Source: Bdellovibrionia bacterium (GTDB taxonomy: Bacteria; Bdellovibrionota; UBA1018). Taken from it: 11,259 nucleotides of DNA. Shown piece after piece: positions 1,674 through 8,225 of the stretch (positions within the stretch are counted from its first letter, which is position 1; every line of letters starts with the position of its first letter). A program made the translations under genes and the position numbers. The DNA is taken from the NCBI GenBank assembly GCA_045805065.1, contig JBJMMA010000019.1, positions 1 to 11,259 on the forward strand, in the 5' to 3' direction. The notes beneath the pieces are model-generated. The model saw nothing but the letters and a program-made list of their open reading frames with translations. It had not been told where the DNA came from and searched no databases.

Positions 1674-2618
1674 CTAGATTCCCAGGCTGAGGATCTTGAT
1701 GATCTTCTTGAGTTTCATCGGATTGAACTGATGAGCCAGTGGACCATCCAGCTGGGTGAGAGCGTTTCGCTGTCTCTCAGCAAGCGGGCCTTTGCCTTCG
1801 GAAACTAAGCCATCAAATACGTTAGCGATCGCGACGATCCTGGCCAGATCGTAGATCTGATTGCCGTGCAGGGCGTTGGGATAGCCTGTTCCGTCGTGAA
1901 ACTCGTGATGTTGGGCGACGATCATCTTCACTTCGCGAGATACGTTTTCCATTTTTGAAACCATGGCTTCGCCAAGGGCAGGATGCTCGCGCAGTTTCTT
2001 TTCATATTCCGCAACATTGGCTTCTTCCACTCGCAGGGCTTCGATTTTTCCAATGTCGTGAAGCAGCGCTCCTGCCGCCAGGTGCTTCAGAATGATCATA
2101 TGGGAATATCCCATATTGACCGCCAGATAGACGGAGAGAACGCTGACGTTCACGGAGTGGTCAGCTGTTCCGCGCGAGAGAGTCTGAAGCTCGGCGAGCG
2201 GTTTGCTGGTAAAGGGTTGTTTTGTCAACTCGTCCACAAGTTGAGTAGAAGTTTCAAGAACCTGGGAAATGCTCTCCTCTGCATGAAAGGAGTGAAAGAT
2301 ATCCGCGATCTTTCTTTGTGCCTCTTGGCGTCTGGCTCGAATTCCTTCGCCAGGGCTTTCCTGAGCCGAAATCATTGCTTGAGCCGCCTCGATTTGAAAC
2401 TGGGTCGACCAAATTTCGAACTCCTGCTCGTCCGACTCAAGAATGAAAAAGTGCTGGAAGTTCTTGATCTCCATCCGATCAAAGATGGTTCTGTCAATAA
2501 TTTGACCCTTGCCGCGATATTGTACATAGCGGCCCTCAAGGTGCAGATAGAGCGGTGCCGGGATGGGTTCGCCCGGGATGACTTTTCTAAGACTCCACTG
2601 CTTATAGTTCTGGGCCAT
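1674..2618 (-). CDS. HD-GYP domain protein (cyclic dinucleotide phosphodiesterase family), divergent motifs
   Basis: Motifs DHSVNV, ALLHDIGK, EHPALG, QHHEFHDGTGYP and ARIVAIANVFD. The ORF track starts at 2657; ATG at 2618 (MAQNY) is chosen as the likelier start. Confidence 0.9.
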   Translation of the reverse strand: MAQNYKQWSLRKVIPGEPIPAPLYLHLEGRYVQYRGKGQIIDRTIFDRMEIKNFQHFFILESDEQEFEIWSTQFQIEAAQAMISAQESPGEGIRARRQEAQRKIADIFHSFHAEESISQVLETSTQLVDELTKQPFTSKPLAELQTLSRGTADHSVNVSVLSVYLAVNMGYSHMIILKHLAAGALLHDIGKIEALRVEEANVAEYEKKLREHPALGEAMVSKMENVSREVKMIVAQHHEFHDGTGYPNALHGNQIYDLARIVAIANVFDGLVSEGKGPLAERQRNALTQLDGPLAHQFNPMKLKKIIKILSLGI

Positions 2619-2677
2619 TTGTTTAAGGTTATCAGTGCGTTTCCGGCCTGTCCACAAGGCCAGCGAGTCAAAAAATG

Positions 2678-2683
2678 TATAAT
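2678..2683 (+). promoter_or_regulatory. Possible -10 box (TATAAT) for the Crp-like operon in the divergent intergenic region
   Basis: Perfect TATAAT about 43 nt upstream of ATG 2726. No clear -35. A small inverted repeat GGCCT-N7-AGGCC lies at 2645-2661. Confidence 0.35.
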
Positions 2684-2725
2684 TTCGGTTTATGTTTGGA
2701 CTTCAGATCACCGATCAGAAAGGTG

Positions 2726-3799
2726 ATGGCACAGGATAAAAGAAATCCGATCCGGACTTATGCAAAAGGAGAGACGCTTTTCAAGCAGGGTGAGCCTGTT
2801 CGCAGTGTCTTTTTTCTTCAGACAGGTCTGGTGGGTATGTCGGTGGCGTCGCAATCCGGCCGGGTCGAAGCCTACCAGGCAACCGCGCCTCAAGTGGTTG
2901 GAAGCGAGGCCTTGCAAGGAGCCGCAGTTTACGAGACCACCGCGGTTGCTCTGAACGATACCGCTGTGATCGAGTTTCCAGCCGAAGTCGCCGCTCAGGC
3001 GATCTCCAAGGCAGTGCCGGCGCACAAGTTGATCTTAACGGGCATGATCAATAAAATTGCCGCAATTCATGCCGAGCTTCGCAATATCAAGCTGCTATCG
3101 GATCCAACGCCTTGTCCGCCTGCCCTGACGGCAAAAATGTTTGCTACTGTCTTTCACGTTGTTTCATACTCGGGCACGCCTAAAGGCGATACGCTGCGAA
3201 TTGTCTGGCCGAGCTTTCGTAAGTATTGCCAACGCGTTTTTGGCGAGTCTCCTGTACGACTGGAACAACTAGTCTATCTGCTTTCAACGTTGGGTTACGC
3301 CGAACTCGAAATGGTCGCAAGCGACACGGATCCGGATGGTCCTGAAGAGCTGGGTTTTGTCCGTTTCAAGGACATCGCGCAGATTGAGAGCTTCTCCGAG
3401 TTTTTCAAAAAGCGATTGAGCGCGCTGGGACCTGAGAAATGCATGGATGTTTTCGATCCGTGCCTCCAGGCAGCGGAGATCCTGCAGCGGAATTTCAGCA
3501 CTCAACCGGTTGATCAGATCGGCAAGAGAAGCGTAAGCCTGAATGCCGCTCTCACCATCCTGAAAGCTGAGCTTGCCCCACAGCCTATGGCAGTGAGTGA
3601 TTTTGAGAAGCTTGTCAAACGCGGACTGCCCATCGAGATCGTGGGGAACGAGATCAGGTTCATCCCTTCGGGCTTTCAGCGCCTGTTCAAGAATTTCAGA
3701 ATTTTAGGGAAGATTGTCGAATGGAACCGTGTAGGCCGCGCGCCTGGCGCGCCGGATCCGGACGCGAATAAGAAGAAGAAGGATACAAAGGGAAGTTAA
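2726..3799 (+). CDS. Crp/Fnr-like protein: N-terminal cyclic-nucleotide-binding (CAP_ED) fold plus extended winged-helix-like C-terminus (paralog 1)
   Basis: cNMP-fold signature RTYAKGETLFKQGEPVRSVFFLQTGLV...TTAVALNDTAVIEFP, then a C-helix and a helical region (ESPVRLEQLVYLLSTLGYAEL). The ORF track starts at 2675; ATG 2726 (MAQDK) is preferred but the start is uncertain. Confidence 0.8.
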   Translation: MAQDKRNPIRTYAKGETLFKQGEPVRSVFFLQTGLVGMSVASQSGRVEAYQATAPQVVGSEALQGAAVYETTAVALNDTAVIEFPAEVAAQAISKAVPAHKLILTGMINKIAAIHAELRNIKLLSDPTPCPPALTAKMFATVFHVVSYSGTPKGDTLRIVWPSFRKYCQRVFGESPVRLEQLVYLLSTLGYAELEMVASDTDPDGPEELGFVRFKDIAQIESFSEFFKKRLSALGPEKCMDVFDPCLQAAEILQRNFSTQPVDQIGKRSVSLNAALTILKAELAPQPMAVSDFEKLVKRGLPIEIVGNEIRFIPSGFQRLFKNFRILGKIVEWNRVGRAPGAPDPDANKKKKDTKGS

Positions 3800-5089
3800 A
3801 TGCCGCAGCAGCCTGCCATCCAAGTAAGAAACTTCAAGCGTGGGGAAGTGATTTATTCCCCGGGATTGGGCGCGGCTTCCGTCTATTTGGTCCAAAGCGG
3901 ACTGATCTCCGTGTGCGTTCTAAAGGAGGGGTGCGCTCAGCTTCATCTTGTGCGACCCATGCAAATCTTCAAAGAAGATGCGCTGATGACGGGGCCTGCT
4001 TCTGGAACAACCGCGATTGCGCTTAAGGATACTCAGGTCATCGAGATTCCGATCGAGATCGCCAAGACTCTGTCAGGAGCCACCCAAGCGCCACTGGGAA
4101 CCTTGTTCAAGAGCCTGATTGAGAGGCTGAAATCTGCTGCCAACGAGCTCCGTTCGCTGAGGATGAATCGCGGCGCGCAGCCATGCCATCCCGATTTAGT
4201 TGCGAAAGTCTACGGCGTGATCTTCTACACGGCCCGATATCTCGGAAAAAAGGAAGGCGATTCGATCGTTCTTCCCTGGAGTCAGCTCAAGACTTACGCT
4301 GTGGAGACATTCCATGAGGAGGAGACGCGCCTTGAGGAAGCGATCTATTCGCTCATCAAGTTAGGATACGCGGAACCCCGTACTGAGAAACAAGAGAGCT
4401 CTGGCCCGGTTCCGCAGAGCGACCGCTGGACAGATATCTGTTTTCGCAACATGGTCCAGATTGAGGCCTTTTTTGATTTTTATCAAAACTACCACTTCAA
4501 AGGCGGATACGCGGGCCTCCTAAAGACCAACGACAAGGCGACGGAATTAACTCAGGCCCTCATCAGGCTTGCAGATAAATATCAGGCGGATCGAGCTGGC
4601 ATGGTGACCATGCCATACAAGCTGACTGTCGATACTTTGAAGGCGACGCTCGGGAAGACTTTTGAAGCCGAACAGATATTCAGGTTGGAGCAGAAGGGCC
4701 TGATGGTGAAACGCACCACTACGCAGGATGGAGGCGTTCTTTCGCTCTTTAAGCCGGAATTCGAGCAAATGCTGTTGAACTGGAAAGTCTTGAAAGAAGT
4801 CGAACAGTGGAACGAGTTCGGGTTCGTCAAACTTCCTGAAGAAATGATCAATGAGCAATCCAACGCGAAGAGCGTCGGAGCAGACGAAAAAGAGTCAGCT
4901 CAAGTGAAAGCTGCAATGGAGGCCTTGGAGTCCTGGAAGCCATTGATCGTATCGGGCTCGGCACCTGTGATTCGAACAGAGCCGCCTCGCCATGACGAAG
5001 TGCTTTGTCCCCTTTGTTTGAGTCCAGTGCTGGCTTCTCAAACCTACTGCACCATCTGTGATTCCGAGATACCGAAAAAAGCCGCTTAG
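3800..5089 (+). CDS. Crp/Fnr-like protein (paralog 2) with C-terminal zinc-ribbon
   Basis: RNFKRGEVIYSPG..SVYLVQSGLI...TTAIALKDTQVIEIP. Colinear similarity to paralog 1 (PCHPDLVAKVYGVIF vs PCPPALTAKMFATVF; RLEEAIYSLIKLGYAE vs RLEQLVYLLSTLGYAE; QIEAFFDFY vs QIESFSEFF). C-terminal CPLC-x10-CTIC. The ATG directly follows the upstream TAA. Confidence 0.8.
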   Translation: MPQQPAIQVRNFKRGEVIYSPGLGAASVYLVQSGLISVCVLKEGCAQLHLVRPMQIFKEDALMTGPASGTTAIALKDTQVIEIPIEIAKTLSGATQAPLGTLFKSLIERLKSAANELRSLRMNRGAQPCHPDLVAKVYGVIFYTARYLGKKEGDSIVLPWSQLKTYAVETFHEEETRLEEAIYSLIKLGYAEPRTEKQESSGPVPQSDRWTDICFRNMVQIEAFFDFYQNYHFKGGYAGLLKTNDKATELTQALIRLADKYQADRAGMVTMPYKLTVDTLKATLGKTFEAEQIFRLEQKGLMVKRTTTQDGGVLSLFKPEFEQMLLNWKVLKEVEQWNEFGFVKLPEEMINEQSNAKSVGADEKESAQVKAAMEALESWKPLIVSGSAPVIRTEPPRHDEVLCPLCLSPVLASQTYCTICDSEIPKKAA

Positions 5090-5185: not shown

Positions 5186-6880
5186 GTGCTGAAGTGGTAT
5201 TGGAAGCTCAGCTTGAAAAATACCTGGAATGATCTAGAAAAAGCACGGACAGCGGAACTTAAGCGGAAAGCCATCAGTGTCACTCTTGTGACAATTCCGA
5301 CGGTGATTTTGCTTGAGCTTATCTTCTATCGAGTGAACGGCCATGACCCAATCAGCTGGCTGTCTATGCTCGTGGTCGCGGGCGTCTCATTCTGCCGGTT
5401 TTTTCATGTCAGATATTCACGCCAATCCGCGATTACTTGGCAAAGAACGACAGCGGTTTTTGCCACGCTTTCGGGGACGGCCTGGGGACTTTATTTCTTT
5501 CGGGCTGCAACGCTGGCAAGCGATAATTTGTCGATCCAGGTCATGGCATTTATCTGCGGCCTGGGTTACTCGGCCACCAGCACTTATACTCTCGCCATCG
5601 AGAAATATGGTTATCGCGGTTATCTGACACCGCTGGTTGCCTTAATCTCGGCTGCCTGGGCGATGACTACGGGAGCGTACCCTCTCGACCGGATCGTAGG
5701 TCTTGTTCTTTTCTTTATCCTGTATCTGGTTGCGCTATCCCAGGGCAATATCGTTGAAAGAAGTTGGGTGCGTGCTGAAAGATACACTCTTGAGCTTCAG
5801 TCTTTGATCGACTCTTTTCCCGGTGGCATTCTTGTTACCATGAACGATGCGACCATTCGTGCGAATGCATACTTCAAAGCTCTTTTTGGTTCAGTAAAGG
5901 TTTTCGATGAGCTGATGGAGTCGCCTGAATTCGCAGAGCGCTTCAGACGGTTCAAGCAGGATGAAAGTGCACTCAGAACAGACTTCGAAGCGATCATCCC
6001 GCTCTCGACTGGAAATCGGGTGTACTGGTTTCTCCTCGTTAAAACTGAGGGATCCTTGCAAGGCGTGGAAGAAATCATTGTAGTCGCCCTGGACGTTCAG
6101 GCTAAGAAAGACGCAGAAGCCCAGATCGAGTCACAAAGAATCAAATTACAAACCAGTGCAAAGCTTGCTGCTCTAGGTGAAATGGCTGGAGGGGTGGCCC
6201 ACGAGATCAATAATCCGATCTTTGTGATTTCTTCGCGAGTGCAGCTGATGCTTCTCATGCTTCAAAAGGATTCAGAAAACGAAAGAATCTGGAAGCCTCA
6301 TTTCAACGCAATCTTGGAAACCTGCGATCGCATCGTCAAAATCGTTCGCGGCTTAAAAGTTGTATCTAGAAGTGCGGAGAACGAAGCATTTGAGACAGCC
6401 TCCATTTGCGGGATCCTGGAGCAGACGCTGGATCTGTGTGCATCCAGACTTGCCCGAGCAGGCGCAAAGCTTGAACTTGGGACAATGCCTAAGGACTGTG
6501 ATGCCGAGGTCCGCTCCGTTCAGATATCGCAGGTATTTCTGAATCTCCTGAATAACGCCTTTGATGCCATCGAGGGAACGGAGTCGCCCTGGATCCGCAT
6601 TGAAATCAAAAGTGAGCCAGGCGAGCTTGTGATCTCCATCACTGATTCTGGAAACGGGATTCCTGCGGAAATCCGAAGCCGCGTGATGGACCCTTTCTTT
6701 ACGACCAAGGCACCTGGCAAAGGCACAGGCCTAGGTCTGAGCATCTCTTTGGGAATCATGAGAGTTCATCACGGCGAACTCTCTCTCGACGAGTCCTGCC
6801 CAAACACCCGCTTTGTGCTGCGTCTCCCAAAAACCCAGAAATTCTCTCCCCCACAAGTTTCAGGAAACGCTCGCGCATAA
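5186..6880 (+). CDS. Membrane-bound sensor histidine kinase (multi-TM N-terminus, PAS-like linker, HisKA + HATPase_c; NtrB-like)
   Basis: H-box [16 protein letters not shown]-box [14 protein letters not shown]1 DSGNGIP, F/G2 [18 protein letters not shown]. About 5-6 hydrophobic segments in the first ~190 aa and a PAS-like '[11 protein letters not shown]...ANAYF' segment. The GTG start is uncertain. Confidence 0.92.
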
Positions 6881-6908
6881 TCCGCATCCAGCGGTACAAA
6901 CGCCCCCT

Positions 6909-7130
6909 CAAGGCCCACCACATCGCCCATTTCATCCCCCGAAAACCGATGCAGACATATTTCAGTCTCATTTTAAAAGTTAATTAGAATGGATTCACTT
7001 CAGCCATGATGGCGAGCGGAAGTGAAAAGGCAGGATGCCTGCTCCATTCTAATTAACTTTTAAAATGAGACTGAAATATGTCTGAACCGAATTTTTCGAT
7101 TTGATGAAATGGGAGAAGTGGTGGGCCTTG
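6909..7130. repeat. Long inverted repeat/foldback overlapping the tRNA 3' end; perfect 42-bp inner arms
   Basis: 6952-6993 (CAGACATATTTCAGTCTCATTTTAAAAGTTAATTAGAATGGA) is the exact reverse complement of 7043-7084. Outer blocks also pair: 6909-6921/7118-7130 (13 bp), 6926-6936/7103-7113 (11 bp), 6940-6945/7093-7098 (6 bp). Confidence 0.97.
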
Positions 7131-7195
7131 TAGGACTTGAACCTACGACCAATCCGTTATGAGCGGACCGCTCTAACCGGCTGAGCTAAAGGCCC
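7119..7195 (-). tRNA. tRNA-Ile2 (anticodon CAU, lysidine-modified, reads AUA); elongator tRNA-Met less likely
   Basis: 77 nt GGGCCTTTAGCTCAGCCGGTTAGAGCGGTCCGCTCATAACGGATTGGTCGTAGGTTCAAGTCCTACAAGGCCCACCA. Acceptor stem GGGCCTT/AAGGCCC, anticodon loop CT-CAT-AA, T-arm GTAGG-TTCAAGT-CCTAC, encoded CCA. G1:C72 is paired, so it is not the initiator. C4:G69 and C5:G68 match known TilS recognition pairs. Confidence 0.93.
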
Positions 7196-7203
7196 CCGAC
7201 ATC

Positions 7204-7212
7204 AAGCTAGCA
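7204..7212 (-). promoter_or_regulatory. Putative extended -10 promoter (TG-C-TAGCTT) for the tRNA
   Basis: The minus strand reads TGCTAGCTT, ending 8 nt before tRNA position 1, inside the 25-nt gap after the esterase stop. Confidence 0.45.
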
Positions 7213-7220
7213 CAACGTGA

Positions 7221-8225
7221 TCAAAACGAAAACAAAAGCTGCGCAGCCATTTGTGATGCGCTAGGGCCTGCTGGATCGGAAAAAGTGATTCCTCCGGTTC
7301 CACCGCTCCAGGCGTGAGGCATTTCATCCACAATCACTTCACGAATTTGCTCACGGCCATTTCCGCCGTAACTGAATACTTCAAAGGCATGGCCGCCTGG
7401 GACTTGGCCTTTTTCGGATTTGATCACGGCGCTCGTTTGAGATCCGTTTTTTTGACCATCGTCCAAAAGGTCATTCATCTGTGTGAACTGCTCGATGATG
7501 CGAGGAGCGTTCTTAGGATTTACAACCGGGTCAGCTGCGCCTTGAATCACTAAAAGCTTGGCCATGCGAGCGCCAGCCCCGGTGCAGCTGGCGCCTTCCA
7601 AGGCCGTTGCTGCAAGATCATGCTTGGGAGTCTGAGTCATTGCAACGTAAGCTTCACGGATATCGGATGCGGCCTTGTACTCAAGACCTGCATCCAGAAT
7701 TCCAACAGAGAAAAGATCCGAATGGCAGGCAATCAGATTTGAGGTGAGGGCAGCACCAGCCGATAGACCTGCCACTCCAATGTGGCGAGGATGAATGGGG
7801 ATCATTCTGCGAACTTCATCTACCATTCCGGTGATGATTCCTAGCTCTCCTCCGCCGCGAACCGCATTGTCGCGAAGGAACCAGTTCCAACAGTTCGAAG
7901 AGTTACTTGCCTTGTCTTGTTCAGGATAAAGAACGACAAACCCCATTTGATCAGCCAGCGTATTCATTCGCGTGGACTGTGCAAAAACGGCTGCTGATTG
8001 TCCGCAACCATGAAGCATGACCATCAAAGGAACCGGAGTCCCTTTACGAAGTCCTTGAGGAACATAGACGTAATAGTTGCGCTGACCGTAAGAGTTTTGA
8101 AATGTTCTCTGGGTCCAGCTTCCGTTTCCGTCCGGGCTTGCATCTGAAGCAAAGCATGTCGAGCCGGCAGAAAGGGTCGTGAGAGCCATGCAGACCGAAA
8201 ACAAGGTAGCGAACTTGGATGTCAT
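7221..8225 (-). CDS. Secreted PHB depolymerase-family (LpqC/type-1 catalytic domain) alpha/beta-hydrolase esterase
   Basis: Signal-peptide-like N-terminus, oxyanion MLHGCGQ, YPEQ...CWNWF, lipase box GLSAG, Asp region QGAADPVV and His region MPHAWSGG. No linker or substrate-binding domain. Confidence 0.88.
   Translation of the reverse strand: MTSKFATLFSVCMALTTLSAGSTCFASDASPDGNGSWTQRTFQNSYGQRNYYVYVPQGLRKGTPVPLMVMLHGCGQSAAVFAQSTRMNTLADQMGFVVLYPEQDKASNSSNCWNWFLRDNAVRGGGELGIITGMVDEVRRMIPIHPRHIGVAGLSAGAALTSNLIACHSDLFSVGILDAGLEYKAASDIREAYVAMTQTPKHDLAATALEGASCTGAGARMAKLLVIQGAADPVVNPKNAPRIIEQFTQMNDLLDDGQKNGSQTSAVIKSEKGQVPGGHAFEVFSYGGNGREQIREVIVDEMPHAWSGGTGGITFSDPAGPSASQMAAQLLFSF

Follow-up and report, generated by a model that had tools for sequence, protein, structure and literature searches.

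Known Elements and the Locus Studied

The TwoAYGGAY motif (RF01731) is listed as a probable RNA of unknown role in the available text of Weinberg et al. 2010 (PMC2864571). According to the accessible part of a 2026 preprint (10.64898/2026.09.22.753630), Pseudomonas genomes carry medians of 11-23 copies, 68.4% of the doublets are divergent with a median spacing of 249 bp, and the elements are associated with arrays of repetitive extragenic palindromic (REP) sequences, have elongated basal stems in Bacillota and are proposed to have undergone a mobile-element-like expansion. A second relevant process is template switching in replication, which, in the portion of the source at hand (PMC8794818), can produce a perfect stem in one event and then maintain its pairing. 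In this study, the entire 11,259-nt contig C19 (the window) of a metagenome-assembled genome (MAG) of 262 contigs and 94% completeness (G000) was analysed. The window holds a 222-nt imperfect palindrome at 6909-7130, which begins inside a tRNA gene with a CAT anticodon and ends in an inverted copy of the 3' end of that gene. This hairpin is one copy of a genome-wide palindromic repeat family. Since its arms are built from neighbouring DNA, the match to the tRNA end is most likely a by-product of DNA copying, namely of hairpin-seeded inverted duplication, rather than a dedicated tRNA switch. Genome G001 is a 490-contig assembly of the same genus, and other G-numbers denote relatives. The parts of the locus are listed below, with the strand where one applies.

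6909-6936: far outer arm, 28 nt, 93% complementary to the near outer arm (inverted-repeat search)
6937-6951: poorly paired middle segment of the left arm, partner 7085-7102 (internal loops in the minimum-energy fold)
6952-6993: left inner arm, 42 nt, A/T-rich, the locus-specific basal stem, perfectly complementary to 7043-7084
6994-7042, plus strand: two-hairpin core of subfamily A, 49 nt, GGA strand on plus (nhmmer E 2.2e-15; covariance model 79.1 bits; pair counts)
7043-7084: right inner arm, 42 nt, perfect complement of 6952-6993
7085-7102: poorly paired stretch in the middle of the right arm, within the tRNA trailer (inverted repeats and fold)
7103-7130: near outer arm, made up of the trailer (7103-7118) and the native tRNA 3' end (7119-7130) (inverted repeats)
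7119-7195, minus strand: tRNA gene, most likely tRNA-Ile2 of the lysidine type (ARAGORN; Rfam tRNA 71.6 bits; acceptor stem common with tRNA-Ile(GAT); tilS in the genome)

Structure of the Palindrome

The 13-mer CAAGGCCCACCAC occurs exactly twice in the window, at 6909-6921 on the plus strand and at 7118-7130 on the minus strand, with a chance expectation of 0.01 matches and two or more matches in 0 of 200 shuffles. Nested inverted repeats have this 13-mer at their outer limit: tRNA nucleotides 7119-7130 plus the first trailer base recur exactly, in inverted form, at 6909-6921, and 6922-6936 is an inverted copy of the trailer at 7103-7117 (13 of 15 positions complementary). The last 12 nt of the tRNA gene are therefore part of the palindrome. 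The inner repeats 6942-6993 and 7043-7094 are 52 nt long and 92% complementary, and 42 nt of these pair perfectly. At the tip, the core folds into P1 (6994-7001/7019-7026), enclosing a small stem (7003-7005/7011-7013), and P2 (7028-7032/7036-7040) with the loop GGA at 7033-7035. The minus-strand RNA of 6880-7200 gave a minimum-energy fold of -176.4 kcal/mol (z = -15.9), equalled by 0 of 100 shuffles. These results confirmed that the hairpin and its anti-tRNA match are real, as read in the original prediction (a hairpin of about 220 nt with its far end antisense to its own tRNA); the pairing blocks of 11, 6 and 42 bp given there were roughly right.

A partial tRNA 3' copy (in the family reaching up to the T-loop) a short way downstream of an intact tRNA gene resembles the attL/attR scars of integrative elements. 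Unlike these, for which a direct repeat is expected, the copy is inverted, as had been noted from the sequence, and such copies lie only 125-225 nt away from the tRNA; a domain search of the nine large open reading frames (ORFs) of the window gave neither an integrase nor a transposase.

ARAGORN detected a single tRNA in the window, with an encoded CCA. Three CAT tRNAs are present in G000. The window one and tRNA-Ile(GAT) agree in 6 of 7 acceptor pairs, another is initiator-like (C1/A72), and the third is of elongator type. The assignment of the window tRNA to tRNA-Ile2, as originally predicted, is therefore plausible from the acceptor pairs and the presence of tilS and is probably correct, which falls short of proof. 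The lysidine synthetase gene tilS (C26:14368-14925, minus strand) was located about 230 nt from, and divergent to, the elongator-type tRNA-CAT (C26:15151-15227, plus strand), which resembles tRNA-Met rather than tRNA-Ile2. Most of the 44 tRNA genes of G000 encode CCA followed directly by TTT; the window tRNA-Ile2 is one of about eight with a trailer not starting with T (CTTCTCCC).

Repeat Family of the Core

A BLAST search of G000 with the whole element returned only the locus itself, and in relatives the tRNA alone was conserved; the family was recognised only with a search of the 49-nt centre by itself. This centre matched two other genomes, where it lies between inverted arms of about 40 nt of different sequence. 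A hidden Markov model of four centres (nhmmer) revealed five strong and three weaker copies in G000, each of the eight capping a long, nearly perfect hairpin with arms of its own sequence. With a covariance model of the core, 75 genomes of the family were scanned; 27 of these had matches. There were 30 matches in G000, a minimum for its copy number, and from 0 to 21 in each of the relatives, so that copy number is patchy. Near-perfect arms of 29-53 nt were found by ungapped extension in 27 of the 30 G000 copies; gapped alignment was needed for C170:3438, C148 and C175, with 32, 86 and 53 paired positions, respectively. The genomes belong to Bdellovibrionota/Oligoflexia MAGs, judging by public records with the same tRNA half.

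In an alignment of 10 copies, a three-way structure was observed, comprising the basal stem, P1 enclosing its small stem, and P2 with the GGA loop. Of the aligned cells, 93.4% pair and both sides have changed in 14 of the 24 pairs, which was reached by 0 of 500 shuffles; G-U accounts for 2 of 228 cells, and the covariation is nearly all Watson-Crick. Two core subfamilies were distinguished. In subfamily A, the type of the window, the arms are unrelated between copies. In subfamily B, the arms are homologous but diverged, the ends are conserved (CAAATCAAAAC-type), and the element is flanked on both sides by a distinct box in inverted orientation, about 30 nt long and itself a small hairpin with the core AAAAGGTGGTCGCCTCC (17-nt box; 42 copies on 22 contigs), as at C10:13870-13993 and C180:28116-28240. 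A hairpin related to this box follows the CCA of tRNA-Ile2 in G003 (L006). Most copies are located at gene 3' ends, often 0-17 nt from the stop codon (crude ORF calls), and copies beside protein genes have the same core-plus-stem architecture. Among pairs of cores within 400 nt, 11 of 12 are divergent (-,+) doublets.

Metagenomes were also searched. A degenerate core pattern gave 61 loci, of which 6 are family members by the covariance model (E < 1e-8) and the remainder are probably chance matches; the exact 24-nt tRNA/trailer junction had 0 matches. Two further observations concern the surroundings of other copies. A 6S/SsrS RNA gene (C143:5849-6021; L026:1650-1822, minus strand; 78.6 bits, gathering score 46.4) directly adjoins the C143 palindromic element (C143:5715-5846). 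A sub-threshold match to the cspA thermoregulator (56.2 vs 78 bits) lies just upstream of the C247 doublet (L030:933-1289; C247:13432-13788, plus strand).

Comparison with Known Systems

The core family resembles TwoAYGGAY in its predicted structure, as far as the accessible text of the sources describes the latter: two small hairpins with (A)YGGA(Y)-type loops stand on a common, poorly conserved and often elongated basal stem. The distribution is likewise of the TwoAYGGAY type, with many patchy copies per genome, divergent doublets about 200-300 bp apart and an association with REP-like repeats, and the loops match a proposed CsrA site (available part of PMC4333381). A CsrA gene (PF02599) is present in the genome and GGA motifs stand in hairpin loops, two features of CsrA/RsmA-sequestering small RNAs of the CsrB/RsmZ type; such an RNA would also have to be expressed as a discrete transcript and bind CsrA. 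Unlike TwoAYGGAY, the elements stay below the Rfam gathering score and occur in a different phylum (Bdellovibrionota/Oligoflexia-type MAGs). The Rfam search gave no RF01731 match for the window copy at E up to 1, and four other copies scored 37.8, 35.7, 32.1 and 29.1 bits, full-length and on the GGA strand, against the threshold of 43. The window copy also differs in having GGA in the P2 loop only, with a P1 inner hairpin lacking it, whereas most other copies have GGA in both.

Like REP sequences, bacterial interspersed mosaic elements (BIMEs) and REP doublets forming hairpins (REPINs), the elements are short intergenic palindromic repeats at gene ends in tens of copies, and Y1_Tnp-like ORFs are encoded in G000. 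In REPINs, the arms are conserved and the loop is variable. Subfamily A shows the opposite, with variable arms and a conserved centre; its arms are unrelated, and none of the Y1_Tnp genes of G000 is flanked by cores or the box, the arrangement expected of REPINs and their associated transposases (RAYTs). The elements also do not fit miniature inverted-repeat transposable elements: by eye, no direct repeats flank the palindromes and the ends are conserved in subfamily B only. Six weak Y1_Tnp (IS200/RAYT-like) ORFs of 196-257 aa with visible HxH motifs, falling into two sequence groups, were noted in G000, the one on C152 adjoining tRNA-Arg(TCG). The Y1_Tnp-type ORFs are the following:

C34:41079-41366
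C251:16123-16458
C152:10200-10400
C243:232-459
C226:9593-9826
C143:7573-7803

Quasipalindrome-associated template switching and fold-back inverted duplication (accessible part of PMC8794818) would account for several features of this family: perfect stems that form all at once, compensatory changes of several bases, indels that recur in mirror image, and inverted repeats that grow outward. Template switching differs in being a mutational mechanism and not an element family, and it leaves the conserved core, the orientation bias and the preference for tRNA 3' ends unexplained.

Stems Taking in tRNA 3' Ends

To survey the genome, all 44 tRNAs of G000 were examined for palindromes with a big loop. 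These were found behind 5 of the 44, and all five begin inside the tRNA, at the following positions relative to the tRNA end:

Ile2: -12
Gln-CTG: -6
Ser-TGA: -10
Arg-CCG: -6
Val-TAC: -2

About 20 other tRNAs of G000 are followed by plain A/T-rich terminator hairpins starting at +1 to +18, that of Val-CAC reaching imperfectly to -9. In the relatives, a tRNA is near 6 of 65 model-match loci, and its 3' end is always 20-56 nt from the core. A perfect inverted copy of the last 22-23 nt of Arg-ACG was recorded in G060, and inverted copies of 8 nt of Val-TAC in G001 and of 13 nt of Arg-TCG on a metagenome contig. The outer arms are of local origin, the matched tRNA being always the local one, and the capture recurs at many tRNA genes. 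Other tRNAs carrying inverted copies of their own 3' ends, one of the checks put forward with the original prediction, are thus present both in G000 and in relatives.

The tRNA-Ile2 survey covered 40 loci (G000 and 39 relatives), with the palindrome class assigned by eye, and 10 of these have a palindrome. For anti-tRNA scoring, three loci with less than 200 nt of downstream sequence were dropped, and a score of at least 12 with p <= 0.005 in 200 shuffles was taken as significant. A significant inverted copy of the own tRNA 3' part was obtained at 7 of the 10 palindrome-bearing loci, and no score exceeded 8 among the 27 scorable loci without a palindrome. Below the line were G004, whose block is broken by a 4-nt deletion, and G072 and G088 with weak or partial blocks. 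The anti-acceptor block tracks its own tRNA: in G002, where the acceptor stem is different, the far arm matches it over 15 nt. In G064, G060 and G066, the copy spans the T-arm and the acceptor strand (15-21 nt aligned); in G064 and G060 the match takes in the T-arm but no complement to CCA. Where genomes of other phyla have an identical tRNA 3' half, ordinary terminators were found and no exact anti-acceptor longer than 6 nt.

The position of these copies is uniform and their orientation largely so, and their extent is not. All tRNA-adjacent copies, 6 in relatives and 5 in G000, are on the 3' side, with none on the 5' side. Among 22 palindromes next to a tRNA, 19 have the GGA-loop hairpin on the antisense strand of the tRNA and 1 has it on the sense strand; 2 have no such hairpin. 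Between 2 and 23 nt of the tRNA are included, and this reach differs even between orthologous loci of one genus. The recurrent capture of adjacent tRNA 3' ends is a new aspect of these stems: the TwoAYGGAY literature, as far as the texts were available and including the main text of the 2026 preprint, makes no mention of stems from adjacent gene ends or tRNA 3' ends, and among the papers listed by a literature search on tRNA-associated palindromic or inverted repeats none was relevant.

Origin of the Arms

Of the 125 arm mismatches in the 30 G000 copies, 22 are of G-U type when the GGA strand is read and 31 when the opposite strand is read, and the remaining 72 are of other types, so there is no G-U excess on either strand. 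The arms change in concert. G000 and G001 have homologous arms at their orthologous tRNA-Val(TAC) loci, where an indel in one arm has its mirror image in the other; the palindrome reaches 2 nt into the tRNA in G000 and 8 nt in G001. These two genomes also appear, by eye, to have homologous arms at the cysS-uvrB locus, both arms having changed, and G001 carries a second element there. The genus g4 members G004 and G080 have the proximal arm and the core in common (76.5% identity over 230 nt); the G080 palindrome is decayed and without an anti-acceptor, and the tRNA is still 99% identical. This pair gives no sign of constraint on the anti-acceptor block.

These data are best explained, with a probability of about 60%, by a DNA-level palindromic repeat whose stem arises by local inverted duplication (template switching or snap-back) and whose arms are kept matched, the tRNA side being the donor. 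The element is TwoAYGGAY-like, and its conserved core of about 50 nt, consisting of two small G+C-rich hairpins, one with a GGA loop, sits at the tip of a long stem built from local, copy-specific sequence. The stem would arise as an inverted duplication of the DNA adjoining the core; either the hairpin-prone core or a native terminator hairpin would seed a template switch during replication, or snap-back synthesis, and the same copying within the palindrome would then homogenise arm against arm. Beside the window core, that DNA is the tRNA trailer and the tRNA 3' end. Since the tRNA side is constrained and could not change, it would be the donor and the far arm the copy, which would thereby become an inverted copy of the acceptor/CCA end; the role of the near arm as donor is thus suggested by selection on the tRNA side and by the own-tRNA matches of relatives. 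The molecular mechanism is presumed to be a template switch, and the anti-acceptor block presumably lacks a selected function.

Several observations weigh against this explanation. The duplication as such was not observed, since the search for an empty orthologous site gave none: none of the ORFs within 1.5 kb of the G000 tRNA has a homologue at the tRNA-Ile2 loci of 15 relatives, and in G002 and G008 only the upstream side is common with relatives lacking the palindrome. A tRNA with the acceptor stem of the window was not found in the 490-contig G001 assembly. Neutral template switching predicts neither the orientation bias of the GGA hairpins (19 of 22 antisense to the tRNA) nor the enrichment behind tRNA genes, where 8 of about 95 model-match loci lie and where about a quarter of the tRNA-Ile2 loci are affected. 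The anti-tRNA block is kept in G064, G066 and G008 despite an unpaired or interrupted neighbouring arm segment, and this persistence could reflect selection on the block. The homology of subfamily B arms means that whole palindromes can also spread as units. Among copies with mismatches and with short inner arms (fewer than 50 aligned positions; n = 14), G-U-type mismatches number 8 on the GGA strand vs 3 on the other, a weak hint of RNA-level tolerance. The orientation bias, the tRNA enrichment and the persistence of the block keep alive two rivals, insertion with an inverted target copy and an origin in a terminator loop. As a separate observation, the best match of the window tRNA in G001 is a tRNA-CAT at C307:3352-3428 (L062), with the same anticodon arm, a different acceptor stem and unrelated gene context and flanks.

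Alternative Explanations

Under the first of these rivals, the cores would be small non-coding mobile elements, active "palindrome makers" that integrate at gene 3' ends in a fixed orientation and with a preference for tRNA genes, the insertion itself writing the inverted copy of the neighbouring gene end, for example through a single-strand or hairpin intermediate and an HUH/Y1 or Xer-type enzyme. Such elements, which we consider unlikely, would account for the patchy copy number (0 to 30 matches), the 3'-side location of all tRNA-adjacent copies and their antisense orientation, and the prevalence of divergent doublets (11 of 12) is as in Pseudomonas TwoAYGGAY in the accessible part of the preprint (10.64898/2026.09.22.753630). 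The six Y1_Tnp-type ORFs of G000, although they might supply an enzyme, are weak (25.6-29.6 bits) and unlinked, having neither a core (best E 0.01) nor the 17-nt box within 1.5 kb. Target-site duplications and conserved ends were not seen by eye in the flanks of subfamily A, and the captured tRNA portion (2 to 23 nt) is not constant even where loci of one genus are orthologous. To our knowledge, inverted target duplications of 40-90 nt are not a signature of transposition, which was also counted against this mechanism. A somewhat smaller chance is given to the core having landed in the loop of a native tRNA terminator hairpin, with the outer arms representing a pre-existing long bidirectional terminator. 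The plain hairpins behind about 20 other G000 tRNAs, including the imperfect reach of that of Val-CAC, fit such an origin, as do the arms at tRNA-Val(TAC), which read A-run, G+C stem and T-run with the core in the loop position, and the poorly paired segment between the outer and inner arms of the window, which fits nesting. The core-bearing arms (44-88 nt) are, however, far longer than those of plain terminators, and anti-tRNA blocks of at least 12 nt occur only at palindrome loci (7 of 10 vs 0 of 27). The genomes of other phyla with the identical tRNA half do not have them, and a 22-23-nt perfect copy reaching the T-loop is no feature of a terminator.

The original prediction had favoured a functional RNA, in which the trailer of a read-through pre-tRNA folds onto the acceptor/CCA end as a cis-encoded switch; an antisense RNA of the GGA strand acting on the tRNA or on CsrA is a variant of it. 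This is improbable. Thermodynamically the switch is possible: in silico, the fold-back (-176.4 kcal/mol) is favoured by 14.3 kcal/mol over the fold with the acceptor stem forced (-162.1 kcal/mol) in transcripts of about 290 nt or longer. In prefix folds, however, the cloverleaf is kept to 260 nt of transcript and lost only from 290 nt. The recurrence of complementarity to the local tRNA across several genera and tRNA species, the constant antisense orientation of the GGA hairpin and the CsrA gene on C164 (PF02599, 90.9 bits), AYGGAY-type loops being proposed CsrA sites in the available part of PMC4333381, would all suit a functional RNA. The covariation with the tRNA, another of the proposed checks, was indeed found; it has a simpler cause, because all stems of the family are locus-specific and self-complementary, also beside protein genes, where the architecture is the same. 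The arms are without a wobble signature, G080 lost the block and kept the tRNA intact, and the matched part of the tRNA differs, being the last 12 nt here and, in G064 and G060, the T-arm with no complement to CCA. A scan of 6600-7500 gave no promoter-like site, and the long hairpin has no U-run behind a G+C-rich stem and thus no canonical terminator; the terminator scan returned only the 5-bp P2 mini-hairpin (minus strand) followed by CTTTT, with 2 sites vs 1.2 expected by chance. The promoter and terminator scans thus gave nothing beyond chance, and a search of public runs yielded no usable RNA data for the organism, so that both the switch and the further suggestion that a released trailer acts as a sponge or primer-binding site were left unsupported. 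A fold-back artefact of assembly or amplification in a short-read MAG, named in the original prediction as a possible refutation, is very improbable. The MAG is fragmented, and the short public contigs from four soil-metagenome runs (X1-X4, one study), which cover 6600-6722, 6739-6917 and 7055-7500 and are 100% identical over 6739-6917 and 7055-7269, do not bridge 6918-7054, so that they neither confirm nor refute the centre. The outer arms, however, pair imperfectly (2 mismatches over 28 nt, followed by indels), the sequence on either side is unique and gene-bearing, and the same architecture recurs at 30 G000 sites, in 26 other assemblies, in public MAG records and on metagenome contigs.

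Neighbouring Genes

The palindrome extends from within the tRNA gene towards a convergent neighbour, whose stop codon is 28 nt before the far arm:

5186-6880, plus strand: histidine kinase gene (ORF list; Pfam HisKA and HATPase_c)

The GGA strand of the core is sense to the histidine kinase gene and antisense to the tRNA. The other neighbour is a polyhydroxybutyrate (PHB)-depolymerase-like esterase at 7221-8225 (minus strand). Upstream of the histidine kinase, two adjoining genes at 2675-3799 and 3800-5089 (both plus strand) with N-terminal cyclic-nucleotide-binding domains were found, preceded by an HD-domain protein at 1674-2657 (minus strand); together with the kinase gene, these may form a signalling cluster.

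Implications

TwoAYGGAY-type elements are widespread, multi-copy and unexplained, and their long basal stems have so far been read as RNA structure backed by covariation. Loci adjacent to tRNA genes offer a natural marker of stem origin: where a stem holds the 3' end of the neighbouring tRNA inverted, at least the outer stem was made from local DNA, with the constrained gene as donor. The capture of tRNA ends, undescribed in the literature examined as far as its text was available, is therefore a useful clue to the origin of long TwoAYGGAY-type stems, and perfect compensatory changes in such stems call for caution as proof of a functional RNA. If the cores were palindrome makers, their insertion or maintenance would entail an inverted target duplication without a known counterpart, with up to 23 nt of tRNA copied, and each such tRNA could carry a built-in anti-acceptor sequence acting on read-through precursors. 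In the unlikely case that anti-acceptor arms do act on pre-tRNAs, an essential decoding tRNA would be under a new kind of control in cis. More generally, the stretches behind tRNA genes in this phylum may be shaped by inverted duplications that hairpins seed at the ends of genes.

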